Shown piece by piece: positions 3,911 through 60,947 of a stretch of DNA of 64,000 nucleotides (its first letter is position 1; each line of letters begins with the position of its first letter). The notes beneath the pieces are model-generated. The model was not told where the DNA came from. It ran no database searches and saw only the letters and a list, made by a program, of their open reading frames with translations. Position numbers and translations under genes: made by a program. The stretch is from Candidatus Magnetocorallium paracelense (lineage in GTDB: Bacteria > Nitrospirota > Thermodesulfovibrionia > Thermodesulfovibrionales > Magnetobacteriaceae): the NCBI GenBank assembly GCA_029001845.1, contig JAREWP010000022.1:33678-97677 (forward strand). Direction: 5' to 3'.

Positions 3911-4063
3911 TTAATCAAAAAACAGCATTTAGCTGTCAGCCATCAGCAGTCAGCTCTTTAATTGCAACACTTTATGGTTCAAAACAGCTTCACCTGTAAG
4001 GTGAAGCTTATTGCTGAAGGCTGACCGCTGACCGCTGATAGCTGACTGCTGTTTTTAGTTAAT
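3911..4063. repeat. family I nested palindrome (gctgac/gctgat periodic arms plus a central perfect hairpin)
   Basis: Left arm 3917-3954: aaaaaacagcatttagctgtcagccatcagcagtcagc. Right arm 4013-4056: gctgaaggctgaccgctgaccgctgatagctgactgctgttttt, an imperfect complement. Central 9-bp hairpin: agcttcacc tgtaa ggtgaagct at 3986-4008. Confidence 0.85.
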
Positions 4064-4105
4064 ATTATAATGTCACTGTCTTATTAATCTTTATGGATAT
4101 ATACT

Positions 4106-5311
4106 ATGAACAATGAAATAGCAAAAAATCAATCCGAACCGGTTCTTCCGGGTACAGTAACAAAAATAGAAAGAGCAGACAAAATATTTTACATAGTAGG
4201 TACTGCCCATGTTTCGAGAGAGAGTGTCGAAGATGTAGAGAAGACAATCGACAGTGTCAATCCGGATTCTGTATGTGTCGAGCTTTGTGAAGCCAGATAT
4301 AAATCGATTATTGAAAAAGAACGCTGGAAGCAAATGGATATTTTTAAAGTAGTTAAGGAAAAAAAATCTCTTTTTTTGTTAACTCAACTGATTATGGCTT
4401 CCTTTTACAGAATGATCGGCGAACATCTGGATGTTCCTCCCGGGGCAGAGATGATTAAAGCGGTTCACATGGCTGAGGAGAGGAAAAAAGAGCTTGTTCT
4501 TGCTGACAGAAACGTTGAGGTTACTTTAAAGCGTGTATGGAGCGGACTTGGTTTTATAGGGAAACTGAAAATGGCTTTTCAGCTTCTTACAGCTTTGTTT
4601 ATGGTAAAAGAGATCGAGATCGACGATCTTGAAAAGCTAAAACAAAGCGATCAACTCGAAGAGATGATGAGTGAGGTTACAAAAGGACTTCCTCAGGTAA
4701 AGGAGAGACTTATTGATGAGAGAGATATTTATCTTGCCGAAAAGGTGCGTACTGCTCCAGGCAGAAAAATCGTTGTTGTCGTTGGCGCCGGGCATGTTAA
4801 GGGGATGACAGGTTACTTGGATAAGGAGAATGATCTAACCGAGATTACGCAAATACCAAAACCCTCTATATGGCCAAAAGTGGCAGGCTGGGCCATACCT
4901 GTGGCTGTGATAGCCATTATTGTGTATGGCTTTATGAAAAACGGTTTCGATCACTCAATGGATTCTGTTTATATCTGGTTCCTTGTAAACGGTTTGTTTT
5001 CCGCATTGGGTGCGGCTGTCGCATTCGGGCACCCTCTTACAATCCTGACTTCCTTTGCAGCCGCTCCGATCACCAGTTTGAATCCAATGCTGGCGGCTGG
5101 ATGGTTTTCAGGGCTTATGCAGGCATATATAAAAAAGCCGACAGTAGAGGATATGGAGAACTTGAAGAACGCCTTTAACTCAGTCAAGGGGTTTTGGCTG
5201 AATCCTGTCAGCAGAGTTCTTCTGGTGGTCGTTCTAGCCAATGCCGGAAGCATGGTAGGAACGTTGGTTGCCGGTAGTTGGATATTAAAAGAGACTCTGC
5301 TGCTTCAATAA
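4106..5311 (+). CDS. TraB/GumN family protein
   Basis: 401 aa. N-terminal FYIVGTAHVSRESVEDV and later VVVVGAGHVKG motifs are typical of the TraB (pheromone-shutdown-like) family. The C-terminal part has several TM helices. Confidence 0.8.
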   Translation: MNNEIAKNQSEPVLPGTVTKIERADKIFYIVGTAHVSRESVEDVEKTIDSVNPDSVCVELCEARYKSIIEKERWKQMDIFKVVKEKKSLFLLTQLIMASFYRMIGEHLDVPPGAEMIKAVHMAEERKKELVLADRNVEVTLKRVWSGLGFIGKLKMAFQLLTALFMVKEIEIDDLEKLKQSDQLEEMMSEVTKGLPQVKERLIDERDIYLAEKVRTAPGRKIVVVVGAGHVKGMTGYLDKENDLTEITQIPKPSIWPKVAGWAIPVAVIAIIVYGFMKNGFDHSMDSVYIWFLVNGLFSALGAAVAFGHPLTILTSFAAAPITSLNPMLAAGWFSGLMQAYIKKPTVEDMENLKNAFNSVKGFWLNPVSRVLLVVVLANAGSMVGTLVAGSWILKETLLLQ

Positions 5312-5351
5312 ACCCAAGTCGTTTATAATGATCTGAGTCATAGATGTTTAG

Positions 5352-7394
5352 ATGTTATCTGCACTCCGAATAAATCGAAGGGAAAATTTTTTTCTATCAA
5401 AAAAATTTCTCCTCCTGTCCCTTACAATATGGACCTCTATTGTTGCATCCTCCCTTTTATTGAATATTTCGGGGCTCAATAAAAGCGTTTATAAAATTGC
5501 AGAAGAGAGCTCTCGTGCAATGTTCAATCTTATACAGTCTTCTCGTATATGGAACGCCAGACATGGCGGGGTTTATGTACCGATAACTGACAATACGCAA
5601 CCAAATCCCTATCTAGACATTCCTGACAGAGATATTGTTTCAACGAAAGGCATGAAACTTACAAAAATCAATCCTGCTTTTATGACACGCCAAATCTCGG
5701 AAATCGCCGTAGAGCTTCATCATGTCGTTTTCCATATAACCAGTCTTAAGCCTATAAGACCTGCAAACAAAGCTGACGAGTGGGAAACGATGGTTTTAAG
5801 AGAATTTGAAAAGGGTAGGGAGGAGAAAATTTCTCTTATTAACGATAACACAGGAAGGGTGTTTCGATATATGGCTGTGCTTAAAGTCAAGAAGTCATGT
5901 TTGAAATGCCATGAAAAGCAGGGATATAAGACAGGCGATATCAGGGGCGGGATCAGTGTGACAATAAAATCGGACCACCTTTTCAGGCACTTTAATTCTC
6001 AAAGGAACAGAATAGTTATATTACATGTTCTGATTTTTCTTATAATCACTTCATTAATGATATATATCTTCTTGATACAAAGAAAATTTTGGATATCGAT
6101 GAAACAAATCGGTGATAAGCAGGAGGACATAATAAATGAAAGAACATCTGAGCTTGCCGGTTTAAACGATCAACTCAGACTCGAGATTAACAGGCGTAAA
6201 AACAGAGAAGAGGAGATTTCCTACAGGCTCCGCATTGAAGAGAGTCTGTTGCTTATCTCAAATATCTTTTCTTCCTCTTCTGACCCGGATATCAAAGCAG
6301 TTCTCTCTTTTCTGGGAGAAACATCCAAAGTGGATCATGTTTTTATATCCCTCCACAATAAAGATGTGAATCGTTTATATCATTGGAATGGCAAGAGTAC
6401 CGAAATAATAAGTGGTGAAACCTATGATGAGGAAAAATTCAATTTTCCATGGTTAACTGAAAAAATGCGGGACAATGACTATGTTGTAATATATGACAGA
6501 AATGAAATAGATGAACATGGCGCAAGGGAAAGAGAATTTTTAAAATCTTTTGGTATTCTTTCTTTTATTGCTGTGCCAATAATTATAAGAAAAGAGCTTC
6601 TCTTTGGATTTACAGGTATCGGTTACCATCTTAAGGGATTTGAGTGGTCAAAAAATCATATTCGCATCATACGTCTTATAAATGAGATGATTGCCAATTA
6701 TCTGGCCAGAGAGGAATCCCGGGATGTGATTAAAAGATCCTTAAAGGAGAAGGATGTTCTTTTGAAAGAGATACATCACAGAGTTAAAAACAATATGCAG
6801 CTTATTTCTTCGCTCATCTACCTCCAGTCCGAGAGTTTGCAGGACAATACTCTCAGCGCCATATTAACGGACAGTCAGAATCGTATAAAATCTATGGCAA
6901 TGATTCATGAAAAACTGTATCAGTCCGACGATCTTGCGGTTATCGATTTCAATGAATACACTCGGGACCTGGTTAGTACAATCCTGACATCACACAGAGA
7001 CCTGTCAGTGAGCTCAGGCATAAGCGTATCTTTTAATATACAAAATCTTTTGCTTGATATCAATACCGCTATTCCATGCGGGCTGATTCTCAATGAACTG
7101 ATTTCCAATGCATTGAAACACGCTTTTACTCCGGGCGTAAAAGGGTCGCTCTCAGTCGACCTTGTCAGTGAAGACTCGTGCCGCTATAAATTGACGGTAA
7201 AGGATAGTGGTAAAGGATTCCCGGAAAAACCTGACTTTAAAAATTTAAATACCATGGGGCTGAAGCTTGTTTATACTCTGGCCACCAGGCAGTTGAACGG
7301 TTCCATTGATATAGACATCACAAAGGGAGCTGGAGCTGTCGTAAAAATCGTCTTTAAGCCTCTTGAGTCATCTGCAGAAAGCAGAGTTATATAG
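5352..7394 (+). CDS. sensor histidine kinase with a periplasmic DUF3365 (Tll0287-like, CxxCH) domain, a GAF-like domain, HisKA_2 and HATPase
   Basis: 680 aa. Two TM helices flank a ~190 aa domain containing KSCLKCHEKQGYKTGDIRGGISV. HisKA_2-type H-box: EIHHRVKNNMQLISSLIYLQ. C-terminal ATPase: LNELISNALKHAF...DSGKGF. Confidence 0.85.
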   Translation: MLSALRINRRENFFLSKKFLLLSLTIWTSIVASSLLLNISGLNKSVYKIAEESSRAMFNLIQSSRIWNARHGGVYVPITDNTQPNPYLDIPDRDIVSTKGMKLTKINPAFMTRQISEIAVELHHVVFHITSLKPIRPANKADEWETMVLREFEKGREEKISLINDNTGRVFRYMAVLKVKKSCLKCHEKQGYKTGDIRGGISVTIKSDHLFRHFNSQRNRIVILHVLIFLIITSLMIYIFLIQRKFWISMKQIGDKQEDIINERTSELAGLNDQLRLEINRRKNREEEISYRLRIEESLLLISNIFSSSSDPDIKAVLSFLGETSKVDHVFISLHNKDVNRLYHWNGKSTEIISGETYDEEKFNFPWLTEKMRDNDYVVIYDRNEIDEHGAREREFLKSFGILSFIAVPIIIRKELLFGFTGIGYHLKGFEWSKNHIRIIRLINEMIANYLAREESRDVIKRSLKEKDVLLKEIHHRVKNNMQLISSLIYLQSESLQDNTLSAILTDSQNRIKSMAMIHEKLYQSDDLAVIDFNEYTRDLVSTILTSHRDLSVSSGISVSFNIQNLLLDINTAIPCGLILNELISNALKHAFTPGVKGSLSVDLVSEDSCRYKLTVKDSGKGFPEKPDFKNLNTMGLKLVYTLATRQLNGSIDIDITKGAGAVVKIVFKPLESSAESRVI

Positions 7395-7401
7395 GGGGGA
7401 G

Positions 7402-9490: not shown

Positions 9491-10363
9491 TCAAGGTTGT
9501 CTGCTTGGTATCTGACGGCATTTTGAATTGACTCTGCCGTTAACGGCGTAGCAGTAAACGCATCCGTGGTAGCAGGTGTTGTATGAACCGATGTCTCTGC
9601 TCTTATCGCAAAAACAGTGTTTTCTCTGGTTTCTGTCACGGCTGCTTTTTACTTCGATAGCGAGAGCCTTTTTCAAAAACTCTGCATCAATACATTTTCC
9701 CTGTTTTACTCCAAAAGCGGAATAATCGTAAGGTATTGCACAACTCTGTAGTTCCATATTATTTATTTTTGCAGAGTTTGCCAGAGAAGCGACTATTCGC
9801 CCGGTAGCGGTCATGTTATCGTTTAAGTCAAAATAGTTAATTCCCCTGGTCTGTCGCATATATGACATAGAAGCAGCGACTTTTTTATAAGTCAGGTCAA
9901 CGATGCTGAATATGACTCTTTGTGTATATCCCTTAAGTTCTGAGGCTATTCTCTCAAAATTATCTATAATATAGTTCTCAGGCGTCATATCGGTTATAAC
10001 AACAGGATCGAACCGCCACACCATTTTGGGGGAGCCGATGATTTCGCTTACTCTTTTGAATGTATCCAGGGATTCTTCGACAGATGGTACATTCGGCTCC
10101 AATATCTTTGGATATCCGTTTACCGTAAAGAGAAAACAGTAGCCGTAACCAAGTGAATTCAGCTTCTTTAAACAGTCAATGAAAGGCGCAGGATTTTTGG
10201 TCCAGAAAACAAAGGCGTCCACTTTTTCAGGTTTAAGGTCTACTTCGAAATGGATACCACTGTAAGGATTTTTTATGGAAACACTCCCTCTTTCAATGGC
10301 TTTTGTAAACCATTCTGTATGAAAGGCCGGAATATCGGTACGTCTGCTTGCCGAAATAATCAA
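9491..10363 (-). CDS. DUF1848 domain-containing protein
   Basis: 290 aa. The N-terminus MIISASRRTDIPAFH and the C-terminal Cys cluster (CFCDKSRDIGSYNTCYHGCVYCYA) are characteristic of DUF1848. Confidence 0.75.
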   Translation of the reverse strand: MIISASRRTDIPAFHTEWFTKAIERGSVSIKNPYSGIHFEVDLKPEKVDAFVFWTKNPAPFIDCLKKLNSLGYGYCFLFTVNGYPKILEPNVPSVEESLDTFKRVSEIIGSPKMVWRFDPVVITDMTPENYIIDNFERIASELKGYTQRVIFSIVDLTYKKVAASMSYMRQTRGINYFDLNDNMTATGRIVASLANSAKINNMELQSCAIPYDYSAFGVKQGKCIDAEFLKKALAIEVKSSRDRNQRKHCFCDKSRDIGSYNTCYHGCVYCYAVNGRVNSKCRQIPSRQP

Positions 10364-10498
10364 TTAATTTCCGAAAAAAGCCTTTTTAGCATTTTTGCCG
10401 CAGTTTTTGTCATTTGAAGATTTACTGTACACAATGTGAGTATAACAGGTAAGTATACGTGGCTTTTAGGGACAGTCCCTTAGTTGCGGATTCTTCTT

Positions 10499-11216: not shown

Positions 11217-11345
11217 TCAATGTCATTAACTTAAGGAACAAAGCACCTTCCGCGGCTAAACTCGAAGGCTCCGCTTCGCTGCGCCTTCTCAAACATGACC
11301 CGCTTCCGTCGGAAGGTGCTTCACCTCTTAAGTTAACGGTATTGA
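11217..11345 (+). repeat. family B palindromic element, copy 1
   Basis: About 130 bp. Outer inverted arms: cattaacttaaggaacaaagcaccttccg / cggaaggtgcttcacctcttaagttaacgg. Inner hairpin: gaaggctccgcttcgctgcgccttc. By eye about 85-90 percent identical to the reverse complement of 59781-59925. Confidence 0.9.
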
Positions 11346-13232: not shown

Positions 13233-13326
13233 ATTTTTCCTCTTTATGTGACATGAATTGTTATTTGTTTTATATCATAACAAAAAACAGCAGATTTATT
13301 TAAGTCATTGAAACGGCATACTGTTT

Positions 13327-13555
13327 ACCTAACCCGGCAAGCGGTTACAAAAAAGGTTTGGGGAATTTCGGAGAAATTCCCTTCAAGTCTCCTCTCCCCT
13401 TGAGGGGAGAGGATTAAGGTGAGGGGTGACAGCGGAGAAGCGTTACCCTGTCGAGTACCTTACCGCACCCCCTCACCCTAACCCTCTCCCCCTTCAAAGG
13501 GGGAGAGGGAGTAAAAAAACGCTGCTTTTGCAGCTTAGGGTTGAGTCAACCCTTA
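13327..13555 (+). repeat. family A GC-rich multi-hairpin element, copy 1 (with the G-motif left flank)
   Basis: Components in order: cctaacccggcaagcgg flank; hairpin ggaatttcggagaaattcc; hairpin ctcctctcccc-ttga-ggggagagga; long-range stem ggtgagggg...cccctcacc; hairpin ccctctccccc-ttcaaa-gggggagaggg; then two small hairpins (gctgcttttgcagc, agggttgagtcaaccct). Four copies occur in the window. Confidence 0.9.
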
Positions 13556-13587
13556 ATCTGAAAAACCTGCTCAGGCCTTTTTTTTTT

Positions 13588-13629
13588 TGACATTCATTTG
13601 GCATTTGAACTTTGGAATTTGACATTCAG
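13588..13629. repeat. family F low-complexity arm (tgacatt / tttggcatt / tgaacttt units)
   Basis: tgacattcatttggcatttgaactttggaatttgacattcag. It resembles the right arm of the 20175-20353 hairpin and lies directly after family A copy 1. Confidence 0.7.
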
Positions 13630-13638
13630 AAATGACGT

Positions 13639-20174: not shown

Positions 20175-20353
20175 CCTAACCCGGCATAGCCGGAACCAAA
20201 CAGAAATTCCTAAACATTTTAATGACAAATGACAAAATCCAAATGTCAATTCAAATCCAAATGCCTAAATGTCAAAAGCCGTACACTTCTCTTTCTTTGA
20301 CATTTGAACTTTGTCATTGATTTGGCCTTTGAGCTTTGACATTTGGCATTCAT
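20175..20353. repeat. family F hairpin with the G-motif flank
   Basis: Flank: cctaacccggcatagccgg. Left arm: aatgacaaatgacaaaatccaaatgtcaattcaaatccaaatgcctaaatgtcaaaag. Short loop. Right arm: ctttgacatttgaactttgtcattgatttggcctttgagctttgacatttggcattcat. The arms are imperfect complements made of about 8-nt units. Confidence 0.8.
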
Positions 20354-21458: not shown

Positions 21459-21635
21459 GCTTGTGCTGCGTCGGACTTCACTGATGTAGTGCTCAACGTA
21501 GCTCTGCTGCGCCTGCACCTAAATCGGCTTGCCTCCTTGCCTAAGCACTTGCTTTTACACCATCGGTCCTCGACCTGATTGTCACTTTTAGGTAATAATG
21601 TAACATCTTCTTTTCCGGTTTTCTCTATATTTCTC

Positions 21636-22541
21636 TTATATACCTTCCTCCTTTAATACACTTCTGACGAAATCTATTTCCATCTCCAATACATCCGCTA
21701 TATTCTCCGCCTTCATGTCAGCTCTTTTGTACAGCTTTATTACCGACTCTTTCTTTGCCTTGTTTACACCTTTTTCCATTCCCTTTTCCATTCCCTTTTC
21801 CATACCGTCAAAAAGCGCCGTTTCCACCAATGACCTCTCATATCTTAAATTCTCCATATAAATATTATAGGCAGCTCTTTCCTCTTCTCTCAAATTTAAA
21901 ATATCCAGTCTCTTCTTAGCTAAATCTATATTCTTCGCATTAAAGTCGTCCCTTATCTCCCCTGTTTTTAAAAAATAGACCCACTCGTCAAATCGCTCCT
22001 CCATCTCCTTATTCTCGTCGAATTTTCCTGTTCGGATTATGTAGTGCTCAGGGAATATCTCATCTATCTCTGTCAGGTTAAACAGCTTTTGCTGAGACTT
22101 TGTCAGTTTCAGAATATCCTTCTTATGCACTCCCGTAAATTGTGTAGTCCCTTTGTACAGATAATCTTCTCCGCTGCCAAGTTCGAAGTATACGATACTT
22201 ACGGTAATAACCTTCCTGATTTTGCCGTAAGATTCTCCCTCTCTTAAGAACTGTGTTATCAAACGCGATGAACCGAATAAAATTCTGTGAAAGAAATCGA
22301 ACTCCCGCTCATACTGCACCTCGATTAATATCAATGCTTCCAGCGAATCCTTTGCAAGTATATCTACTCTGTTGGATTTGTCTCTTTCTGCTTCCTTATT
22401 ACTTTCGCTCTCGATTATATCTACTATAGTAATATCCTCATGAAGCAATTCGCTCAGAAAACCCTCCAATATATCGAAATTGGCTTTGTCTCTGAGTATA
22501 CGCTTTATCGCCCAGTCAAATGTTATTAACTTTCTTTTCAT
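21636..22541 (-). CDS. Rpn-family recombination-promoting nuclease / PD-(D/E)XK putative transposase
   Basis: 301 aa. DWAIKRILRDKANFDILEGFLSELL...DKSNRVDILAKD...LILIEVQYE is the YhgA/Rpn-type nuclease core. The C-terminal part is helical with MEKG repeats. Confidence 0.85.
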   Translation of the reverse strand: MKRKLITFDWAIKRILRDKANFDILEGFLSELLHEDITIVDIIESESNKEAERDKSNRVDILAKDSLEALILIEVQYEREFDFFHRILFGSSRLITQFLREGESYGKIRKVITVSIVYFELGSGEDYLYKGTTQFTGVHKKDILKLTKSQQKLFNLTEIDEIFPEHYIIRTGKFDENKEMEERFDEWVYFLKTGEIRDDFNAKNIDLAKKRLDILNLREEERAAYNIYMENLRYERSLVETALFDGMEKGMEKGMEKGVNKAKKESVIKLYKRADMKAENIADVLEMEIDFVRSVLKEEGI

Positions 22542-23152
22542 TAGAATCGCCTTTACATCTTGTATTTGTAATCTTTTGCAGGTTTAAAGGTTGAGGAATA
22601 AAAATAAACAACCGGAGGGTGCGGATTGTACTCACCCCTATGTCTATTATATCCCAATGTTCATTGCATGCGCAAAGATAATCAGAAAACCTTTAGCGGG
22701 GATTGTTACACTTCATCCAAAAACAAAACCATACAACACTGTCATTCCGATGAAAATCTGAATCCAGGGTTCAAAAGAGGGATGTTGAAAGTATGGACAG
22801 GGAAACACTTGCCCTGATATTGGATAGCAGTATAGAAAAAAAACAGGCGATGAATTAAAAGAGTCTTTCCGTAAGTTAAGAGCTACTGCCGAAATGATCG
22901 GTTGGAGAGAGCGTGAGTTTTTGAATGCTCTGTCGTTGCTGTTGGAAAAGTAGCGCACAAAGCCTTTTTCTTAAAAAAAATTTTAATTCCGAGATTTTTT
23001 ATTTTTACCCGCCCTTATGTTCATTCCTGCAATATCAAAGAAGTTACAAAAGAATAATTCTGAATATAATTCTCAAATGCCTGCCAGGCAAGGCTTATCT
23101 GCGATGACATGATTCATTGCAACAATTAAAATGTTAATAAAATTATAGCTTT

Positions 23153-23205
23153 TGTAGGTAAAACACCTACAAAGCGTGTAGGTGTTTTACCTACAGATTT
23201 TTTCT
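23153..23205 (+). terminator. perfect 19-bp-stem hairpin followed by a T-run (intrinsic terminator and/or a four-half-site protein-binding site)
   Basis: tgtaggtaaaacacctaca (23153-23171), aagcg, tgtaggtgttttacctaca (23177-23195), then gattttttcttttc. Each arm is itself palindromic (tgtaggt / acctaca). Confidence 0.5.
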
Positions 23206-23289
23206 TTTCAAATATGTTATAACAATCTCTAAATCCAACCCAACGTAACGATTCACTCGATATCAGTTAATAGTTTTGACTTTTTTCTT

Positions 23290-23452
23290 TAACTCCCTCT
23301 CCCTCTTTGAAGGGGGTGAGGGGGTATGTATAGTACAGTGAGGGGGTGCGATACACTACTCGATAGGGTAACGCTTCTCCACCGTCACCCCTCACCTTAA
23401 TCCTCTCCCCTCAAGGGGAGAGGAGACTGAAAGGGAATTTCTTTGAAATTCC
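23290..23452 (-). repeat. family A GC-rich multi-hairpin element, copy 2 (inverted orientation)
   Basis: The reverse complement reads ggaatttcaaagaaattccctttcagtctcctctccccttgaggggagaggattaaggtgaggggtgacggtggagaagcgttaccctatcgagta... The distal part is diverged relative to copies 1, 3 and 4. Confidence 0.9.
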
Positions 23453-23490
23453 TGTAACGATTGCTATAGTCGTTTAAAGGGGACAATCGA

Positions 23491-23562
<72 letters not shown>

Positions 23563-23714
23563 ATTACCTGCCTTAAAAAGAATTCCCGTCAAATACATTT
23601 AAAGTATCACACCCCTTATCACCAAGTCTTTTCATATCTCAACCGACAAATTATCTTCATAATATTTCCATACAATCAGTCAATAAACCCTGTTATCTTT
23701 ATTTTTTCCAAATA

Positions 23715-23778
23715 TCAAAAACCAGTAAATCCGCCTAAAACTCAAAAAGCAGTTGCAAATGAAAGTACTCTAAAAAAA
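23715..23778 (-). repeat. family E unit, copy 1 (inverted)
   Basis: The reverse complement tttttttagagtactttcatttgcaactgctttttgagttttaggcggatttactggtttttga aligns with 28878-28942 and 29088-29152. Confidence 0.85.
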
Positions 23779-23787
23779 TATTTTAAA

Positions 23788-23857
23788 AACCACGAAGTTC
23801 ACGAAGGACACGAAGAAAAAACAAAAAATCTTCGCGCCCTTCGTGAACTTTGTGGTT
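23788..23857. repeat. family D (cacgaag)n hairpin without cargo
   Basis: Left arm aaccacgaagttcacgaaggacacgaaga, loop aaaaacaaaaaa, right arm tcttcgcgcccttcgtgaactttgtggtt. The arms are complementary apart from 3 mismatches. Confidence 0.9.
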
Positions 23858-23864
23858 AATTAAT

Positions 23865-23930
23865 CTTTTTTGAATGCCTTTGGATTATGATTGTTTTTTT
23901 CACTTAATATGTGATTTTACTGAGTTATGA
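23865..23930 (+). repeat. family E unit, degenerate copy (completes an E-D-E composite palindrome spanning 23715-23930)
   Basis: cttttttgaatgcctttggattatgattgtttttttcacttaatatgtgattttactgagttatga shares blocks with family E: tttttt-ga-t-c-ttt-gatt-a-gattgtttt ... gattttactgagtt-tga. Confidence 0.6.
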
Positions 23931-24000
23931 CGATACAGCAAATAGATTGAAGATTTTATCTTCACAAATGTAACAAATCTATTTTTAGGAGGAAATTTTT

Positions 24001-25227: not shown

Positions 25228-25238
25228 GGATAATTATT

Positions 25239-25737
25239 AACCACGAAGGGCACGAAGATCACGAAGAAAGGGATAAAGATATTAGATTTCATTATTATGT
25301 TATATTAGGTAATGGAATTCGATGAGTTATCTAATAAGGTTATCGGGCTTGCTATTACGGTTCATAAAGAATTAGGGCCTGGATTGTTGGAGAATACATA
25401 TAAACAATGCCTTGCCTATGAATTGAGTAAGGCTGGTATGAATTTTCAGATAGAAGCCGATTTGCCTGTCGTTTATAAAGAAATCAAAATATCATGCGGT
25501 TACAGGATCGATTTATTGATAGAGAAGCAACTGATTGTAGAGCTAAAGAGTGTCGACCAACTACACTCTGTACATGAAGCCCAAATACTTACATATATGA
25601 AACTGTCGAATATAAAAAAAGGTCTATTACTTAATTTCAATACAGTATTATTAAAAGACGGCATAAAAAGATTTATTTTATGATTAAAAATATTTTTCTT
25701 TTATTCCTTCTTCGTGGCCTTCGTGCTCTTCGTGGTT
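25239..25737. repeat. family D (cacgaag)n inverted repeat enclosing the GxxExxY ORF
   Basis: Left arm 25239-25272: aaccacgaagggcacgaagatcacgaagaaaggg. Right arm 25705-25737: tccttcttcgtggccttcgtgctcttcgtggtt, its near-perfect reverse complement. The ORF 25312-25683 sits in the loop. Confidence 0.9.
25312..25683 (+). CDS. GxxExxY family protein (PD-(D/E)XK nuclease-like fold)
   Basis: 123 aa. VIGLAITVHKELGPGLLENTYKQCLAYEL carries the G-x-x-E-x-x-Y signature. YRIDLLIEKQLIVELKSV is a D...E-x-K nuclease-like core. Ends with ...LLNFN. Confidence 0.9.
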   Translation: MEFDELSNKVIGLAITVHKELGPGLLENTYKQCLAYELSKAGMNFQIEADLPVVYKEIKISCGYRIDLLIEKQLIVELKSVDQLHSVHEAQILTYMKLSNIKKGLLLNFNTVLLKDGIKRFIL

Positions 25738-25778
25738 AAAAAAATAACAAGTTTCTATTCAATTAAGGAGAGAACAAT

Positions 25779-28571
25779 ATGAAAAAACGATATTTAACAT
25801 ATTTTTTCCTTTTCCTTCCTTTACTTCTCCTGCCTGCCATAGCCTTTTCCGCAAGCAGTAACTGGGACGAGATGATATGGGATCAGGATGTATGGGACGG
25901 AAGTAACAAATTTACACTTACTGTAAGTACTACGGGATCGGGAAGCTGTACTGTCACGAGTTCCCCCTCGGGAATTAATTGCGGAAGCGATTGTAGTGAA
26001 AGTTACGATTCAGGAACAAGCGTCACATTAACAGCCACACCTGACAGCGGTTCCACATTCGACGGCTGGTCAGGGGCATGCAGCGGTACAGGGAGTTGTA
26101 ACGTAACCATGACTGTGGCTACAGCCGTAACAGCTACATTCACAAGCGCCTGCGGCGACAACTTTACCATATCCCCGACAAGCAAATCCTTTGATGCGGC
26201 AGGCGGAACGGGCAGTGTATCGGTAACTGCGCCGGCAAGCACATGCACATGGGGCGCTTCGGTAGATTCGAATTCAACGAGCTGGATAACGATAACATCG
26301 GGAAGCAGCGGAACCGGTAACGGAACGGTCAGCTATAAAGTATCGGAAAATACCGGTACGGCGGCAAGAACCGGAACCATAACCATAGCCGGTAAGACAT
26401 TCACCGTGACCCAGGATGGAGCAGAATGCAAATTTACATTATCGGAAACGAGCAAATCCTTTTCCGCATCAGGCGGAACCGGGAGTGTAACTGTAACGCC
26501 TTCAGGCAGCACATGTGCATGGACGGCATCGGTTGATTCATCCTTTGCAGGCTGGATATCCGTCACATCAGGCAGCAGCAGTACCGGAACGGGAACAGTT
26601 AATTATACGGTTGCCGAAAACACCGATACTGGAGCAAGGACAGGTAAGATTACAATCGCAGGACACTCTTTTGAAGTAACTCAGGAAGGGGCATGTGGAT
26701 TTACCCTTACTCCTGCAAGCCAAACATTTACCACAAGCGCAGGAACGGGAAGCTTTGCCATTGATGCATCGGACAGCGCCTGTGCATGGACGGCAACAAG
26801 CAGTGATTCGACGTGGCTTGGTTTTACAACGACTGCAAGCGGAACCGGAGATGCAACAGTGGGTTATTCCGTTACTGAAAATACAGGCTCAGACCAGAGA
26901 TCAGGAACAATCACCATAACAGGAAGTACTTCATCCTCCGTATTTACGGTAACTCAGGATGGAGTAACCTGTGTCAGTACAGGATTTACAATAACGCCTG
27001 CAAGCGCATCTTATGATTATGAAGGCGGAACGGGAAGTGTTGCCGTAACAGCCCCGACAGGTTGTGACTGGACAGCAGTAAGCAACACGCCGGACTGGCT
27101 CCTGATAACATCGGGAAGTACTGGAACAGGAGAAGGCAGTGTTTCTTATGAAGTAGAGGTAAACACATCCTCTGAGACGCGTACAGGAACCATGACCATT
27201 GCAGGAAAGACCTTTACCGTTACACAGGAGAGTTTTGTCGTAGGAACTCTTGTCGGTTACTGGACTTTTGATTCAGGTTCAGGGAGTATTGCCTATGACT
27301 CCTCAGTGAACGGATATGACGGAACCATTGCAGGAGCCGAGTGGATCGAAAACGGCGCCTGCGGGTATGCGCTGAGCTTTGACGGAACGGAAGATTCCGT
27401 AGAGCTTCCCTATTCATTTATGAACGGAATCGGAGCCTTTACATTCAGTGCATGGGTGCTTGTAGATCACGGCGCATTTACATCCGGTGAAACTCTTATG
27501 GGCGCCATTGTTTCGGCAGCTAATGCAGGTCAGTCAAATGAATTACTGCTCTTTGTCAACGGTACGGAGTTATGGCCGATGATAAAGGGAGAGAGATTCA
27601 TAACCACCAGAGGAATCAGCGACAGTCAGTGGCATTATGTCTCTCTTGTAAGAGAGAGTTCCGGTAATTCTTTACTCTACATAGACGGAGAGTTGGACAG
27701 TTCCGGTGTTCTTTCTCATGAACAGTTAAGTGTAGAGCCCGGCGGATTATGGCTGGGAAGAGAGCAGGATTGCGTGGCCGGATGCTGGGATATATCTCAG
27801 GATTTTGAGGGCGCAATGGACGAGATAAAGATATACAACTATGCACTGACTTATGACGAGATGCTGGCTGATATGGCGGACTGCGTACCCACAACAGGCG
27901 GTGAAATCGTCGTAACACCGGGGTCTCACAATTTCGGTGAAGTCAATGTAGGTGATCACTCCTCCCACCAGACCTTTACAATCAAGAATACAGGTGTGGT
28001 AAGCCATGCACTGGGCGGACTGGAACTTTCCGGCGCCAACAGCCATGAGTTTCTGAAGGTAAACGATACCTGTTCATGGAAGACTCTTGATCCTGCACAG
28101 AGCTGTATTGCAGAGATCGCCTTTGTACCTGCTACGGAAGGTGAAAAGAGTGCAGGCCTGGATGTGGTATCCGATGAGTCAACCGTCAGCGTACCATTGT
28201 CAGGCGTCGGAGTAATCACGAGCAGCATCGACCTGGCAGGTGAGTGGCAGTCCTTTGAAATGCAGAAAGTCGGTAGAGACAATTTGCAGGTAAAAGGGAC
28301 TTTCCTTGTCAAGAATAACGGTCCTGAGTATTTCAGAGGTACCGTGAAACTGACAGGATACTTTTCTAATGATGACGTATACAGCTCCGACGATGTGTAC
28401 AAGGCTCAGAAGAGTGTCAATGTAAAGGGACGTCAGGGAACCACCCTGAATGTCAACTTTACGGCGGCCGGACTTACAGGGAAGTATCTGATCGTTGTCA
28501 TCGATGCTGACAATATTGTAACCGAATATGACGAGGATAATAATGTTGTAATAAGTCCCATGATGAGATAA
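25779..28571 (+). CDS. large secreted multidomain surface protein (BACON-like repeats, LamG/ConA-like, choice-of-anchor-D/ASH-like, CARDB-like)
   Basis: 930 aa with RBS aaggag and a signal peptide. About five repeats of the type S..F.A.GGTGSV.VTA....C.W.A.......WI.ITSGSSGTG.G.V.Y.V.EN.....RTG.ITIAG..F.V.Q. LamG_3-like block: LVGYWTFD...GYDGTI...AFTFSAWV...QWHYV...LYIDGEL...MDEIKIYNYAL. Then HNFGEVNVGD...FTIKNTG, and a C-terminal YLIVVIDADNIVTEYDEDNN. Confidence 0.85.
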   Translation: MKKRYLTYFFLFLPLLLLPAIAFSASSNWDEMIWDQDVWDGSNKFTLTVSTTGSGSCTVTSSPSGINCGSDCSESYDSGTSVTLTATPDSGSTFDGWSGACSGTGSCNVTMTVATAVTATFTSACGDNFTISPTSKSFDAAGGTGSVSVTAPASTCTWGASVDSNSTSWITITSGSSGTGNGTVSYKVSENTGTAARTGTITIAGKTFTVTQDGAECKFTLSETSKSFSASGGTGSVTVTPSGSTCAWTASVDSSFAGWISVTSGSSSTGTGTVNYTVAENTDTGARTGKITIAGHSFEVTQEGACGFTLTPASQTFTTSAGTGSFAIDASDSACAWTATSSDSTWLGFTTTASGTGDATVGYSVTENTGSDQRSGTITITGSTSSSVFTVTQDGVTCVSTGFTITPASASYDYEGGTGSVAVTAPTGCDWTAVSNTPDWLLITSGSTGTGEGSVSYEVEVNTSSETRTGTMTIAGKTFTVTQESFVVGTLVGYWTFDSGSGSIAYDSSVNGYDGTIAGAEWIENGACGYALSFDGTEDSVELPYSFMNGIGAFTFSAWVLVDHGAFTSGETLMGAIVSAANAGQSNELLLFVNGTELWPMIKGERFITTRGISDSQWHYVSLVRESSGNSLLYIDGELDSSGVLSHEQLSVEPGGLWLGREQDCVAGCWDISQDFEGAMDEIKIYNYALTYDEMLADMADCVPTTGGEIVVTPGSHNFGEVNVGDHSSHQTFTIKNTGVVSHALGGLELSGANSHEFLKVNDTCSWKTLDPAQSCIAEIAFVPATEGEKSAGLDVVSDESTVSVPLSGVGVITSSIDLAGEWQSFEMQKVGRDNLQVKGTFLVKNNGPEYFRGTVKLTGYFSNDDVYSSDDVYKAQKSVNVKGRQGTTLNVNFTAAGLTGKYLIVVIDADNIVTEYDEDNNVVISPMMR

Positions 28572-28603
28572 TACTCTTTTTATTTCACTAATACGACGCT
28601 ATG

Positions 28604-28640
28604 GAGATGCCCGGAAACAGTCGGGCATCTCTTCTAATCT
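28604..28640 (+). terminator. candidate intrinsic terminator after the 930-aa gene
   Basis: 10-bp GC-rich stem gagatgcccg (28604-13) / cgggcatctc (28622-31), loop gaaacagt, followed by a weak T-rich tail ttctaatct. Confidence 0.5.
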
Positions 28641-28841
28641 GTAAGATGATCCTGAAAGTATAAAGAAGATATTTGGTCATAGTTCTCAGAGGTAGGAGAT
28701 GGGAGGCCGGTTTTATATGACAATACCTTTCTCCAATTAAAATAACCACATTTATGAGTAATAATAAGCTATCAGACAATGGATGAAGAAGTTTTTTACA
28801 ATTCGAATGCGCTGGATTCCCGCCTTAAGAATTTTCTTTTT

Positions 28842-28870
28842 TCTTCGCGCCCTTCGTGTGCTTCGTGGTT
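28842..28870. repeat. family D right-arm-only copy
   Basis: tcttcgcgcccttcgtgtgcttcgtggtt. The first 17 nt are identical to the right arm at 23829-23845. No matching left arm lies nearby. Confidence 0.85.
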
Positions 28871-28877
28871 AAAAAAG

Positions 28878-28942
28878 TTTTTTTTCGAGTACTTTTGATT
28901 TACGATTGTTTTAAAGTTTTAGCCGGATTTACTGAGTTTTGA
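28878..28942 (+). repeat. family E unit, copy 2
   Basis: ttttttttcgagtacttttgatttacgattgttttaaagttttagccggatttactgagttttga. Confidence 0.85.
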
Positions 28943-28984
28943 ATTTTGTCAGGGGTGAATATAATAGTGAACCTCGACAATTCA

Positions 28985-29072
28985 GAAGTTTAAATGTCAT
29001 AATTAAGCATGAAAACAGGTTTTAACATTTTGTATTTGATTTGACACTTGAATTTTGTCACTTTTGAATTTC
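28985..29072. repeat. family F-like hairpin
   Basis: gaagtttaaatgtcataatt ... aacattttgtatttgatttgacacttgaattttgtcacttttgaatttc uses the same tgaca/tttga unit vocabulary as 20175-20353. Confidence 0.55.
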
Positions 29073-29087
29073 TTATACATTAAATTA

Positions 29088-29152
29088 TTTTTTTGAGTAC
29101 TTTTGATTTGCGATTTTTTTTTCGGTTTTAACCGGCTTTACTGCGTTTTGAG
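29088..29152 (+). repeat. family E unit, copy 3
   Basis: tttttttgagtacttttgatttgcgatttttttttcggttttaaccggctttactgcgttttgag. Confidence 0.8.
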
Positions 29153-29165
29153 TTTATACCTGCTA

Positions 29166-29216
29166 AATAAGTAGCAAAACAGTCTCTTTTTTTAAACTGA
29201 CCTCCGTTCCCGGAAT
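29166..29216 (+). repeat. family C partial copy (right end only)
   Basis: aaataagtagcaaaacagtctctttttttaaactgacctccgttcccggaa aligns with aaataagtcaaatttctttaaacagacctccgatccctgaa at 35043-35083. Confidence 0.5.
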
Positions 29217-29852: not shown

Positions 29853-30096
29853 GTAACTACTCAGTTATTTAGGTTGAAGACTGAAGCAAAAAATTAAGTG
29901 TATTCAGTAGTTTTGAATCTCCTTTTTGGCTTCTTCAAGAAATCCCATCGTCTTTTTCATGTAATCTTCATACTGTTGGAAAGTTAAGAATGAAACGTAT
30001 CTTTGAAAAAACGTAAATTGTCCCACCTTCTCACTCAAGTCATTTGATTTTTTGCTTCAGCCTTCAGTCTTCAGCCTAAAATACCTAAGCAGTTAC
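29848..30096. repeat. family H (ctgaagg/ctgaagc)n hairpin with a ~140-bp loop
   Basis: Left arm: cctaagtaactactcagttatttaggttgaagactgaagcaaaaaattaagtg. Right arm: catttgattttttgcttcagccttcagtcttcagcctaaaatacctaagcagttac. The loop holds a 40-codon minus-strand ORF fragment (29904-30026). Confidence 0.85.
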
Positions 30097-37163: not shown

Positions 37164-37350
37164 ACCTAACCCGGCAAGCGGTCACCAAACAGGTTTGATG
37201 TAATGCTTAGGAATTTCGAAAAAATTCCCTTCAAGTCTCCTCTCCCCTTGAGGGGAGAGGATTAAGGTGAGGGGTGACGGTGGAGAAGCGTTACCCTATC
37301 GAGTACTGTATCGACCGCCCTCACCCCAACCCTCTTCCCCTTCAAAGGGG
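37164..37350 (+). repeat. family A GC-rich multi-hairpin element, copy 3 (with the G-motif flank)
   Basis: aacctaacccggcaagcggtcacc...ggaatttcgaaaaaattcccttcaagtctcctctccccttgaggggagaggattaaggtgaggggtgacggtggagaagcgttaccctatcgag...ccctcaccccaaccctcttccccttcaaagggggagagggag. Confidence 0.9.
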
Positions 37351-37634
37351 GAGAGGGAGCAAGAGAATAACAGATCACAAATTTATTGATAATAAATGGA
37401 GCTTTGCTCCGTTATTTTACCTGTATCTGGAGGTTGATGTATGAAATTGTTTAGAAATTTGTTAATGATTGTTATGGTCTTTGCCATTTTTTACCGGAAA
37501 GACTCTTTCGATTATAAAGAGATTTCGTTAATTTAGTTCCTAATACTGCAGCGACACTTAATACTAATCGCTGTTCAGGCAACAGGCATAAGAAAAATCA
37601 AACCTTGTGCCTGTTGCCTTATGCCTTTTCACTC

Positions 37635-46654: not shown

Positions 46655-46830
46655 GGAATTTCAAAGAAATTTCTTTACAGGTCTCCTCTCCCCTTGAGGG
46701 GAGAGGAGACAAGGTGAGGGGTGACGGTGGAGAAGCATAACCGTATCGAGTACCGCACCCCCTCACCCCAACCCTCTCCCCCTTCAAAGGGGGAGAGGGA
46801 GTAAGAGAAAAGTCGCTGCCTGAGGCAGCT
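46655..46830 (+). repeat. family A GC-rich multi-hairpin element, copy 4
   Basis: ggaatttcaaagaaatttc...gtctcctctccccttgaggggagaggagacaaggtgaggggtgacggtggagaagc...caccccctcaccccaaccctctcccccttcaaagggggagagggagt, plus the gctgcctgaggcagc hairpin. Confidence 0.9.
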
Positions 46831-46929: not shown

Positions 46930-47077
46930 GTAACTATTTAAGTGTATAGACTGAAGGCTGAAACAAAAAATCAAATATCCTGAGTACGTCAGCCAATAAA
47001 AAACTTAATGTTTTATCGATAACACATGTTTTAACCTGACAGTCTTCAGCCTTCAGTCTATACATCTAAGCAGTTAC
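46930..47077. repeat. family H (ctgaagg)n hairpin, second copy
   Basis: Left arm gtaactatttaagtgtatagactgaaggctgaaac. Right arm agtcttcagccttcagtctatacatctaagcagttac. The arms are close inverted complements with a loop of about 75 nt. Confidence 0.85.
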
Positions 47078-56574: not shown

Positions 56575-56608
56575 CTCCTCTTTATCCATAAGAGGAGCGT
56601 TATTTTTA
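56575..56608 (+). terminator. candidate intrinsic terminator after the FKBP gene
   Basis: Stem ctcctctt (56575-82) / aagaggag (56590-97), loop tatccat, followed by cgttattttta. Confidence 0.55.
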
Positions 56609-56685
56609 TATTTATTCTGTTGTTACTACATTTGTTTTTCTGATTTTACCTGCCTTTTTTACAATAATATAATCAGTCTAATTAA

Positions 56686-56806
56686 CGTTCGAATTCAAAC
56701 GAAATAAAGCCTCATTCTAAATCCGTGTTCGGTAAACCGGCGGGCTACGCAGGCTAAAGCCTGCGCCTACATTTAAAGACTTCCGCCGAAGGACGTTAAT
56801 TTGAGC
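56686..56806. repeat. family B-like palindrome (distant relative)
   Basis: ttaacgttcg...ccggcgggctacgcaggctaaagcctgcgcctac...cttccgccgaaggacgttaat. It shares the outer ttaac / gttaa arms and an inner GC-rich hairpin, the same design as family B. Confidence 0.5.
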
Positions 56807-56828
56807 CGTGAGTTATTGTAATTCAAAA

Positions 56829-56858
56829 GCTGATAGCTGACTGCTAAATGCTATTTTT
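56829..56858. repeat. family I half copy
   Basis: gctgatagctgactgctaaatgctatttttt matches the reverse complement of the left arm at 3917-3947 and the right arm at 4034-4056. Confidence 0.75.
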
Positions 56859-56865
56859 TATTTAT

Positions 56866-58110: not shown

Positions 58111-58150
58111 AGATTGAAAAGATATAAAAACCTGAGTAGTTACAAAAAGT

Positions 58151-59748: not shown

Positions 59749-59780
59749 TTTTTCCTCCTTCTATTTAGAAATTATAGATT

Positions 59781-59925
59781 AATACCATTAACTTAAGGAG
59801 TGAAGCATCTTCCGATGAAAGCGGGTCATGTTTGAGAAGACGCAGCGAAGCGGAGCCTTCAAGTTTAGCCGGTGAAGGCGGGAAGAGCTTTGCTCCTTAA
59901 GTTAATGACATTGAATTATAGATAA
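59781..59925 (-). repeat. family B palindromic element, copy 2
   Basis: The reverse complement aligns end to end with 11217-11345, with one 6-nt indel and scattered substitutions. Confidence 0.9.
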
Positions 59926-59935
59926 CAAAAAGACC

Positions 59936-60598
59936 TTAAGAGAGACTGCAACTGCAAGAGCATGCGCAGCCTCGTGATTTTTCAAATGCCTCTTTGCCCT
60001 CTTTAAAAGAAAAAAAGGCAATGGCAATTGCTCCGAGCGAGTCGATATAGCCTATACCTGTCAGCTCATAACCGACACTTGCTATGAGCAGTGTAAAAGA
60101 GAGCATCATACATGTTTTTGTACAGGCGGCGTCAGCGTAAAGCGCTTTTGATCCCAGTCTGCTTGCAGTGATGAGTTTATAATGAATAAGAAGCCACATA
60201 GAGGCAATGCTTACAATAGAAATAATGATACCCCAAAAAGTTGTTTCCGGTTTTTGTCCTGAAAAAATATTTAGTATTGCAGATATAATCAGACCTGCAA
60301 AAAGTATATAAAATGCAGTACCTGTAATTCTCAGCGCCTGTCTTTCAAAAATATCGGAATTTGTTTCTACTGAAAGTCCTTGCTTTTGTATTCTGATTAT
60401 CATATGCCATATGCCTATGCCTGATATTACTTCTACAAAAGAATCCAGACCGAAACCAAAAAGAGATATGGTTTCGTCTTCAAAACCTAAAAAAACAGAA
60501 ACCAAGCCTTCGAAAAAATTATAGAATATTGTAATGCAGGCGAGTATATAGGCGAGTTTGTATAATTTTCTTATATTATTGTCAACAGAGTCAATCAT
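59936..60598 (-). CDS. cation-efflux-like membrane protein (CDF transmembrane domain only) with a Cys-rich tail
   Basis: 220 aa, six TM helices. FNFFEGLVSVFLGFEDETISLFGFGLDSFVEVISG resembles the CDF TM1-2 region. C-terminus: GCACSCSCSLS. Confidence 0.7.
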   Translation of the reverse strand: MIDSVDNNIRKLYKLAYILACITIFYNFFEGLVSVFLGFEDETISLFGFGLDSFVEVISGIGIWHMIIRIQKQGLSVETNSDIFERQALRITGTAFYILFAGLIISAILNIFSGQKPETTFWGIIISIVSIASMWLLIHYKLITASRLGSKALYADAACTKTCMMLSFTLLIASVGYELTGIGYIDSLGAIAIAFFSFKEGKEAFEKSRGCACSCSCSLS

Positions 60599-60605
60599 TT
60601 ACTTC

Positions 60606-60749
60606 TTAAGAAAGCTCTTTTTTATTATCGCAAGATGATCCCTCTGACCCGCAGGAACACCCTCCTTTTTTTTTGAAAACAGATTTATATTTCAGATATA
60701 TCAAACCACCTGCAATAACTACAAGAAAAATCGTGTCCGTTAAAGCCAT
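60606..60749 (-). CDS. FeoB-associated Cys-rich small membrane protein (47 aa, below the ORF-track cutoff)
   Basis: My translation: MALTDTIFLVVIAGGLIYLKYKSVFKKKGGCSCGSEGSSCDNKKELS. Strong RBS gaggagg. The layout (one TM helix, a basic stretch, then a Cys-rich tail) matches that family. Ends 7 bp upstream of the cation transporter gene. Confidence 0.6.
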   Translation of the reverse strand: MALTDTIFLVVIAGGLIYLKYKSVFKKKGGCSCGSEGSSCDNKKELS

Positions 60750-60880
60750 AAATAAACCTCCTCTCGGGTTAAACGAATGACATCTCCGCAGTTAGCTGCT
60801 TTCGAAGCAAACAACTATAAACCTCCGGATTATTACAAAGCATGAGAATACTAAAGTATAGGAAGAACACTATATATTTT

Positions 60881-60947
60881 AACCGCGAAGATCACTAAGG
60901 GCACAAAGATTTTTATTTTTCTTTATGCCTTTCATGATCTTCGTGGT
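60881..60947. repeat. family D hairpin, degenerate cargo-less copy
   Basis: Left arm aaccgcgaagatcactaagggcacaaag, loop atttttatttttc, right arm tttatgcctttcatgatcttcgtggtt. Confidence 0.75.

Follow-up and report, generated by a model that had tools for sequence, protein, structure and literature searches.

Are the palindromes that crowd the intergenic gaps in a stretch of the Candidatus Magnetocorallium paracelense genome (Nitrospirota; contig JAREWP010000022.1) mobile DNA, and what might move them? The stretch, referred to here as the window, covers 64,000 nucleotides (nt), positions 33,678 to 97,677 of the contig. A preliminary description, made from the sequence alone, had sorted its palindromes into families lettered A to I and read them as modular elements of a single design. 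Every intergenic gap was read, with repeat tools alongside, and the arms of the elements were sought by BLAST and by mismatch-tolerant array searches. The named families are present at or near the places first reported for them, and the observation is confirmed; the interpretation placed on it is partly supported. Most of what follows concerns family D, whose arms, (CACGAAG+2 nt)3, bracket the sole open reading frame (ORF) found inside any element loop. An ORF within a loop had been mentioned before, which is true of D; what had not been recognised is that this ORF is a nuclease gene. Arms and gene together appear to make up an undescribed mobile element.

The complete D cassette (25234-25742, plus strand) is a 46-nt inverted repeat, 80% complementary, whose 5' arm (25234-25279; TTAACCACGAAGggCACGAAGatCACGAAG) and 3' arm (25697-25742; CTTCGTGgcCTTCGTGctCTTCGTGGTTAA) enclose a gene of 123 amino acids (aa) at 25312-25683 on the plus strand. 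By its sequence, the product is a GxxExxY (PDDEXK_3) nuclease of the PD-(D/E)XK type: it matches PF13366 at 147.8 bits (cut-off 22; E = 2.2e-43) and TIGR04256 at 148.7 bits (cut-off 35; E = 8.2e-44), and its catalytic-type triad of D67, E77 and K79 is intact and is invariant or nearly so across homologues. An AlphaFold2 model built from a diverse alignment has a predicted local distance difference test score (pLDDT) of 95.7; a shallow alignment had given an inferior model (pLDDT 58), which was set aside. Among solved structures, the fold comes closest to those of Cas4 SSO0001 and of enzymes of the lambda-exonuclease type, all weak matches (E ~5e-3; template modelling score 0.46-0.53), and a PDB sequence search with the protein gave no matches. 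PADLOC finds only a weak Cas4 match for the nuclease, and the cassette is therefore not a known defence system. The GxxExxY family is large, with 28,077 clusters at 50% identity (E <= 1e-3), or 11,105 at E <= 1e-10. Many of the best-scoring relatives (P0241-P0255 and others) are ~265-295 aa long with two matched stretches, apparently tandem fusions or duplications of the domain. Besides the complete cassette, the window has an ORF-less D hairpin at 23774-23871 (12-nt loop; fold -42.4 kcal/mol, z = -11.2), a second ORF-less inverted repeat with degenerate units at 60880-60949 (z = -10.7), and a solo 3' arm at 28832-28876 that was found by repeat search.

Homologues were surveyed in one genome scan (one genome per species) and one metagenome scan. 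The first ten loci, retrieved by exact look-up, which lie on metagenome contigs, in GCA_040960175 and in Ca. Jettenia (where the gene stands between rmlA and rmlC), encode proteins of 72%-80% identity, and all are bracketed by (CACGAAGnn)n / (nnCTTCGTG)n arms. The genome scan gave 80 loci from ~20 phylum-level lineages, as judged from record titles, and almost all of them have arms; the homologues examined for arms in these two sets (10 loci, then 80) are 58%-80% identical to the window protein. The lineages include Planctomycetota, Nitrospinota, Calditrichota, Desulfobacterota, Spirochaetota, Chloroflexota, Gammaproteobacteria, Bacteroidota, Ignavibacteriota, Chlorobiota, Verrucomicrobiota and the candidate phyla radiation. 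In a de novo count of heptamers up to 140 nt from the gene, CACGAAG or CTTCGTG ranks first at 63 of 85 loci and CACAGAG at eight. Three-unit arrays have a density of 3.4/kb within 200 nt of the gene, compared with 0.02-0.04/kb beyond 500 nt (~100-fold). Arm-to-arm distances are bimodal (n = 107): 43 are at most 100 nt and span no ORF, and 51 are 350-550 nt and span one gene. The arms are associated with the gene, are conserved with it and mark the boundaries of the unit. Cassettes occur singly between housekeeping genes. Neighbours could be called at 53 loci; the cassette gene points the same way as both of them in 43 and the opposite way in three, which fits a promoter-less gene riding host operons such as rmlA-rmlC and fabD-fabG. 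No description of the cassette was found in the searchable literature, and its arm strings occur in no paper there; GxxExxY is given in one paper there only as the annotation of a neighbouring domain, and two others that use the name are, by title and abstract, not about repeats.

Comparisons between loci bear directly on movement. Nucleotide identity of at least 90%, limited to the cassette, is seen in loci from different phyla (L028/L029, L032/L090 and L067/L077/L085), and between L028 (Thermodesulfobacteriota) and L029 (Binatia) homology starts precisely where the 5' arm has its outer edge. Judged from these alignments, the cassette has evidently been transferred horizontally as a discrete unit bounded by its arms. 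A multi-copy state and target-site duplication are seen together in one genome, on the gammaproteobacterial contig CALOFM010000020.1, where three ~565-bp copies (L033, L034 and L035; locus positions ~9913-10478) are 99% identical and have unrelated flanks. Each is a composite of outer terminal inverted repeats (TIRs; GGTGATTT...AAACCACC), D arms and a GxxExxY gene; the outer module holds CCTAAACCCGG, which resembles the G motif of the window, and each copy is flanked by a direct, matching pair of TTA or TAA, a 3-bp target-site duplication. The preliminary description had suggested that such duplications be sought, and they are found at this composite; none is clear for the window copies in alignments of C, H and B. 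In a Planctomycetota metagenome-assembled genome (MAG; JAFEBS01), two cassette copies (L037 and L041) each have a flanking 28-nt direct repeat (CGCGGGCAAGTTACCTTGGNCGTTCGGC), which is either a long duplication or the mark of insertion between tandem copies of another repeat. Strings like AAGTTACC flank the D cassettes in both the gammaproteobacterial composite and this MAG. A GTAAC/GTTAC terminal motif was considered as a general feature and rejected, as GTTAC shows no enrichment next to the D, H or I arms of other genomes.

More distant homologues carry other heptamers. CACAGAG/CGCAGAG arms accompany proteins of 48%-61% identity, and CGCGAAG accompanies one of 39%. Among plasmid-borne homologues, that of Bacteroides finegoldii (54%) has CACAGAG/CGCAGAG arms, that of Bernardetia (51%) CACAGAG arms, that of Gemmatirosa (48%) a (CGCAGAG)3 hairpin, and that of Sphingomonas (39%), between fabD and fabG, (CGCGAAG)3. 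In the fetched loci, arrays more than 500 nt from the gene share the alphabet of the resident gene by 34 to 2 and 5 to 0, counts that are phylogenetically non-independent. The arm alphabet would seem to track the protein clade, a link that rests on few independent lineages.

We put at roughly 55% the probability that D is a nuclease-associated mobile cassette with ORF-less derivatives, that its arrays are recognition sites, and that H, I and F are analogous. The derivatives would be comparable to miniature inverted-repeat transposable elements (MITEs) or to REPINs, the hairpin-forming doublets of repetitive extragenic palindromic (REP) sequences. The window would then have one complete cassette (25234-25742), and the hairpins at 23774-23871 and 60880-60949 and the solo arm at 28832 would be ORF-less derivatives or targets of it. 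We envisage a promoter-less nuclease gene that moves between genomes as an arm-bounded unit. The encoded nuclease, or a complex containing it, would recognise heptamer arrays and cut at or near them, and repair or recombination would then copy the gene into the loops of ORF-less hairpins (homing). Alternatively or additionally, the hairpins may be mobilised in trans, as REPINs are by REP-associated tyrosine transposases (RAYTs). The H, I and F arrays would be analogous sites for other partners, and A, B and C conventional MITE-like insertions. The heptamer binder, the cleavage site and the copying route are the parts of this scheme that we infer.

Several observations weigh against this account. 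The arrangement is hairpin-gene-hairpin, not arm-gene-arm, at 14 of 85 loci; homologues of 33%-36% identity have a single inverted repeat or direct repeats; and the 123-aa protein is a minimal nuclease core without an obvious DNA-recognition domain. The only clear target-site duplication is that of the gammaproteobacterial composite, whose outer TIRs look like those of a conventional MITE and which could have been mobilised by an unrelated transposase. No orthologous pair of filled and empty sites was found for the D cassette, no partner gene was identified for A, B, C, E, F, H or I, and no A, B, C or E element was seen beyond the window. Lastly, D-type hairpins are abundant in IMG/VR phage contigs without a GxxExxY gene. 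Their loops there are short and their neighbours are phage structural genes, and the IMG/VR contigs carrying D arrays encode no GxxExxY proteins. As these contigs have the hairpins only, D hairpins can persist without a linked gene.

The main competing explanation places the role of the arms at the RNA level. The arms would pair as a ~27-bp stem that serves as an RNase III substrate or blocks 3' exonucleases; ORF-less hairpins would be REP-like mRNA stabilisers, insulators or inter-cistron processing sites; and a gene-spanning stem would excise or insulate the inserted gene, much like the stems around 23S rRNA intervening sequences. Very stable predicted stems (z = -10.7 to -11.2), the same-orientation cassettes inside co-directional gene strings (43 of 53 loci) and the placement of hairpins between genes, phage structural genes included, all speak for such a role. 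The pattern of conservation does not. Cassette arms are inverted arrays of two to four CACGAAG units with a 9-nt period and ACCACGAAG as the outermost unit; the array consensus is T-rich-AC-CACGAAG-RR-CACGAAG-RR-CACGAAG-A-rich, and 'AC' precedes the outermost unit in 95%-96% of arrays. Among 58 non-redundant 3+3 hairpins there is no covariation: the spacer dinucleotides pair at chance (33.6% Watson-Crick paired vs 36.0 +/- 3.0% with shuffled partners), and of 55 departures from the heptamer consensus, 50 lack a compensating change and five have one. The CACGAAG heptamer is moreover unchanged over ~20 phyla and across genomes of 37%-70% G+C, a constancy that pairing alone does not need. Read on either strand, the D hairpin has a T-run before it and an A-run after it, where a terminator would have a U-run, and is therefore no intrinsic terminator; elements also occur in divergent promoter regions. 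Since covariation is absent and the heptamer is kept over this range of G+C, the data argue for sequence-specific recognition of each unit and not for a purely structural RNA role. The heptamer arrays probably serve for recognition by sequence, much as transposon ends use repeated sub-terminal binding sites, and do not act as RNA helices. We consider the RNA explanation unlikely.

Slightly less likely again, in our estimate, is that the D hairpins are an independent REP-like repeat kept by some other factor or by the host, with the GxxExxY gene a selfish one that inserts preferentially into their loops or beside them, in the manner of IS1397 and ISKpn1 at REP loops, and has no role in their spread. 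Gene-free hairpins in phage contigs, hairpins of bacterial loci at distances above 1 kb from the gene, the co-occurrence of arm-gene-arm and hairpin-gene-hairpin arrangements, and locus L017, where the 5' arm is duplicated with one copy on each side of the gene, would all be expected from this. It sits less easily with an arm alphabet that shifts with the protein clade, with distal arrays that match the resident gene, with the ~100-fold higher density of arrays beside the gene, and with cross-phylum transfers that carry arms and gene jointly. It seems improbable that the arrays are non-mobile binding sites for a host regulator or nucleoid protein, comparable to the short tandemly repeated repetitive (STRR) sequences or TAACTGA heptamers. 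Tandem heptamers are indeed intergenic, some directly ahead of a start codon (as are I at 3918-4056 and F at 20221-20345), and heptamer arrays are widespread in other bacteria (PMC4679880), but insertions are polymorphic between related genomes at the hslU-rlpA gap, 99%-identical multiple copies with target-site duplications occur in one genome, the unit is transferred horizontally as a discrete piece, and the elements take either orientation in every intergenic context. Finally, the idea that these are chance palindromes, ordinary terminators or assembly artefacts is effectively refuted. A few plain terminator-like hairpins do occur (28603-28640; the 19-nt stem at 23153-23195). However, BLAST self-comparison finds 11 long inverted repeats in the window, where 20 Markov shuffles average 2.05 (maximum 5), and RNA-fold z scores lie between -6.8 and -11.2 for D, I, H, B and A, with none of 200 shuffles folding as well. 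The preliminary description had itself raised terminators and artefacts as ways in which it might be wrong, and neither holds. The elements lie in six divergent, three convergent and seven co-directional gaps and in either orientation, and are thus not plain 3'-end terminators; with the run of T, hairpin and A-run on both strands, intrinsic terminators were rejected. Copies within window families differ by 5%-20% and so are not assembly duplicates, and the same arms recur in hundreds of independent public contigs.

Several known systems resemble the proposed nuclease cassette in part. Free-standing homing endonuclease genes, which include a PD-(D/E)XK class (I-Ssp6803I), share with it a small nuclease gene between conserved host genes, a sporadic cross-phylum distribution, and a gene that splits a palindromic site into halves while intact ORF-less sites exist elsewhere; where their target is a conserved host gene, the putative target here is itself a dispersed repeat. 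IS1397 and ISKpn1, IS3-family insertion sequences, insert into REP loops and thus also place a coding element in the loop of a dispersed palindromic repeat, but they have TIRs and a transposase of their own, whereas here the hairpin arms are the sole ends. Transposons such as Tn7, Mu, En/Spm and Ac/Ds have ends with repeated sub-terminal binding sites. Likeness to such ends and to MITEs lies in the terminal inverted structures with several short motif copies per end, the short ORF-less derivatives and the 3-bp TWA duplication in one multi-copy case; the difference is that the cassette gene is a minimal nuclease and not a known transposase. Like MITEs, families A, B, C and H, together with the D copies that lack an ORF, are short, ORF-less and present in several copies, with TIRs. 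For ORF-less D, the gene-bearing cassette is the candidate autonomous element; for A, B, C, H and I, neither the window nor the fetched loci yielded an autonomous transposase-coding partner. Bacterial interspersed mosaic elements (BIMEs) of enterobacteria and BOX elements of pneumococci are mosaic intergenic elements that, like those of the window, re-use a few modules in variable order (here E-D-E, G-A-F and D-E-F-E-C); there is no sequence relationship, and several of the modules here differ in having tandem-unit arms and a cross-phylum distribution. Integron cassettes with attC sites were considered and rejected, given that the window has no integrase, the cassettes are single and the arms are conserved heptamer arrays.

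REPIN-RAYT systems (Bertels & Rainey 2011, PMC3116915; PMC3337134) are also many-copy short intergenic palindromes, with inverted repeats that are both dispersed and found flanking the associated gene and with a repeat variant that seems to track the variant of that gene. In contrast to RAYTs, which are Y1/HUH transposases of the IS200/IS605 type and are mostly single-copy and vertically inherited, the gene here encodes a 123-aa PD-(D/E)XK nuclease in a horizontally mobile, multi-copy cassette, and its arms are tandem heptamer arrays where a REP is a single hairpin with a GTAG-type head. As the gene is not a Y1 transposase, the cassette lacks the defining component of a REPIN-RAYT system. The STRR sequences of cyanobacteria and the TAACTGA repeats of Beggiatoaceae are intergenic tandem heptamers of unknown function from distant lineages (PMC4679880). 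They too are tandem heptanucleotide arrays limited to intergenic DNA, but their published unit sequences differ from those found here, and a Beggiatoaceae genome has 169 direct sets vs one inverted (PMC4679880), where the arrays here are inverted pairs that form hairpins or bracket a gene.

The window itself is ordinary Nitrospirota chromosome (~40% G+C), with several unrelated non-coding palindromic families occupying its intergenic space. Its genes include hslVU, lptD, asmA, aroK/aroB and those for chemoreceptors, histidine kinases and polysaccharide export, and its HslU is 76%-83% identical to proteins of Nitrospirae, Ca. Magnetoovum, Ca. Magnetobacterium and Thermodesulfovibrionales. No tRNA genes were found in it. 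No Rfam covariance model matches the window at the gathering score, and at E <= 1 the only matches are spurious ones to miRNA-hairpin models. No integrase, no DDE or other recognised transposase and no Y1 transposase is present among its ORFs. Palindromic elements were found at 17 intergenic loci and take up ~3.0 kb of the 11.9 kb of non-coding DNA, or about one element per 3.7 kb. The preliminary description had judged such density to go beyond ordinary REP content; the elements are dense indeed, yet the figure is inside the range of REP/REPIN-rich genomes. The families probably behave as mobile DNA of the MITE/REPIN kind.

The single architecture first attributed to all families holds for D, H, I and F, with their arms built from tandem units of 7-9 nt, and does not extend to A, B and C, which look like ordinary MITE-like elements of TIR or hairpin type. 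Family A has four copies of ~150 nt that are roughly 80%-95% identical in alignment: A1 (13362-13519, plus strand), which has four hairpins, A2 (37210-37367, plus; 37164-37367 together with G), A3 (46667-46809, plus, in the locus 46655-46809) and the inverted copy A4 (23290-23440, minus). Its junction motif, GGGGAGAGGA..AAGGTGAGGGGTGAC, is found in 14 unrelated metagenome contigs of 51%-65% G+C, from which the whole A element is absent. Family B consists of two palindromic copies, B1 (11217-11345, plus; ~130 nt, z = -6.9), an inverted repeat between hslU and rlpA, and B2 (59760-59933, minus), an inverted copy of B1 and likewise an inverted repeat. The further relative reported at 56686 has no convincing homology to B and was rejected, as was the spacer 21459-21635. 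The gap between hslU and rlpA varies between related genomes, in keeping with the insertion polymorphism that the preliminary description had proposed to look for: it has B1 in the window, is empty in Ca. Magnetoovum WYHC-5 (L107) and has a different repeat-rich insert in GCA_024449705 (L105). Family C is MITE-like, ~170 nt long, with degenerate TIRs (GTAACnGTTCAnAG). C1 (8933-9104, plus) aligns with its inverted copy C2 (34925-35099, minus), which ends in GTAACTGTTCACAG...TTGAACCGTTAC, and the reported fragment, near 29194 (~29190-29216), matches over only ~40 nt.

The modular composites that had been noted are real. E-D-E (23715-23930) is a palindrome in which inverted E units extend outward from the ORF-less D hairpin at 23774-23871. 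G-A-F (13327-13635, plus strand) has G at 13327-13348, then A1, two small hairpins and an F arm at 13585-13635. D-E-F-E-C (28832-29216) begins with the solo D 3' arm (28832-28876) and continues with E (28874-28940), an F hairpin (~28930-29065), a second E (29082-29150) and the C fragment (~29190-29216). E has four copies in all, three of them joined to the outer side of D arms. G-F-F (20175-20353) is a G-like motif followed by a hairpin with arms of TGACATTT/GAACTTT units that abuts the start of the next gene. F, with sites at 20221-20345, 13585-13635 and 28930-29065, is the weakest family (fold z = -3.2). The two H elements have the same ends and arms, GTAAC..TTAGG with (CTGAAGn)n, around unrelated loops: 124 nt in H1 (29853-30096), which lies between convergent genes, and 82 nt in H2 (46930-47077; z = -8.5). 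The I element (3918-4056; z = -9.6) has (GCTGACn)n arms and an inner GC hairpin at 3986-4008. The gap that holds it separates divergent genes, and the gene start at 4106 is 50 nt downstream of the element. The string AAGC(N0-2)GTTAC occurs seven times in the window (13339, 13438, 23368 on the minus strand, 30087, 37286, 47068 and 56345) vs 0.96 expected, and six of the seven lie within G, A loops or H ends.

Whether these families extend beyond the window, as had been supposed, has a divided answer. (CACGAAGnn)3, (CTGAAGn)3 and (GCTGACn)3, the arms of D, H and I, each occur in at least 120 IMG/VR stretches, and the A sub-module occurs in the 14 contigs mentioned above; no full-length A, B, C or E was found in the sequence of the nearest available relatives. 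F-like and G-like modules are also found elsewhere, an F-like arm beside a D arm in Ca. Scalindua (L014 12668-12796) and the G-like motif in the gammaproteobacterial MAG. The H-type hairpins of IMG/VR, TTAGG(CTGAAGG)n...(CCTTCAG)nCCTAA, have the same borders as H in the window. No recurrent small gene was found beside H or I arrays, where the clustered adjacent IMG/VR ORFs are ordinary phage genes. Putative phage contigs of 47%-70% G+C (for example L154, L142, L157 and L216) have several D-type hairpins each, and L157 has at 5559-5768 a nested hairpin whose outer arms are (CGCGAAGA)3 and whose inner arms are (CGCGGAG/CGCAGAG). In ~60 kb from the nearest relatives (L105, L107/L108), no match to A, B, C, E or H was found. 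These relatives have their own hairpins with (GTCAGAG/GACAGAG)n arms, such as that between two genes of GCA_024449705 (L105 19134-19301), which has the architecture of H, I and D in another alphabet. In Danxiaibacter flavus (Bacteroidota; L059 2490-2800), one intergenic region has direct (AGCTNTC)n repeats, terminator-like hairpins and then long (TCTTACN)n arrays, and tandem-heptamer intergenic DNA is thus common well beyond this lineage.

Other features of the window deserve mention. The 1.46-kb gap shared by A4 and E-D-E also has a perfect (ACAG)14 microsatellite (23506-23562) that could be phase-variable. Within the same region, 23153-23195 is a perfect 19-nt stem with a 5-nt loop (TGTAGGTAAAACACCTACA / TGTAGGTGTTTTACCTACA), terminator-like and unrelated to the named families. 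Beside this repeat-rich gap (22542-24000) lies a gene on the minus strand (21636-22541) for an Rpn-family PD-(D/E)XK 'recombination-promoting nuclease/putative transposase' (PF12784, TIGR01784), for which no link to any repeat family was found. Just 3' of the D cassette, the ORF at 25779-28571 encodes a 930-aa surface-type protein with tandem BACON domains, and the DNA encoding these repeats in units of ~270 nt with 69%-73% identity (26159-27059). The gene xerC, which is directly upstream of hslV in relatives (L105 8556-9455; L107 8473-9387), is missing from the window, where the G-A-F composite and a polysaccharide-export cluster occupy its position (13233-13638).

It is possible, and we offer it as a tentative generalisation, that GxxExxY nucleases with inverted heptamer arrays constitute a previously unrecognised and very widespread class of prokaryotic mobile element, in which the nuclease drives homing or trans-mobilisation and the alphabets (CACGAAG, CACAGAG, CGCAGAG and CGCGAAG; possibly also CTGAAGG, GCTGACN and TGACATTT) are co-evolved specificities. 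If true, this would give a function to a large family of 'unknown function' and account for many intergenic tandem-heptamer hairpins. Joining GxxExxY/PDDEXK_3 proteins to a recognisable DNA architecture yields a testable hypothesis, that of a minimal nuclease recognising repeated heptamers, and a possible new route by which selfish DNA spreads in bacteria and perhaps phages. The arms and similar hairpins also yield spurious ORFs and break assemblies, and gene calling in Nitrospirota, Planctomycetota, Bacteroidota and others would gain if they were recognised as the ends of elements. For the biology of such genomes, the window indicates that one genome can host many hairpin families re-assorted as mosaics, which extends the BIME/REPIN picture beyond Proteobacteria.

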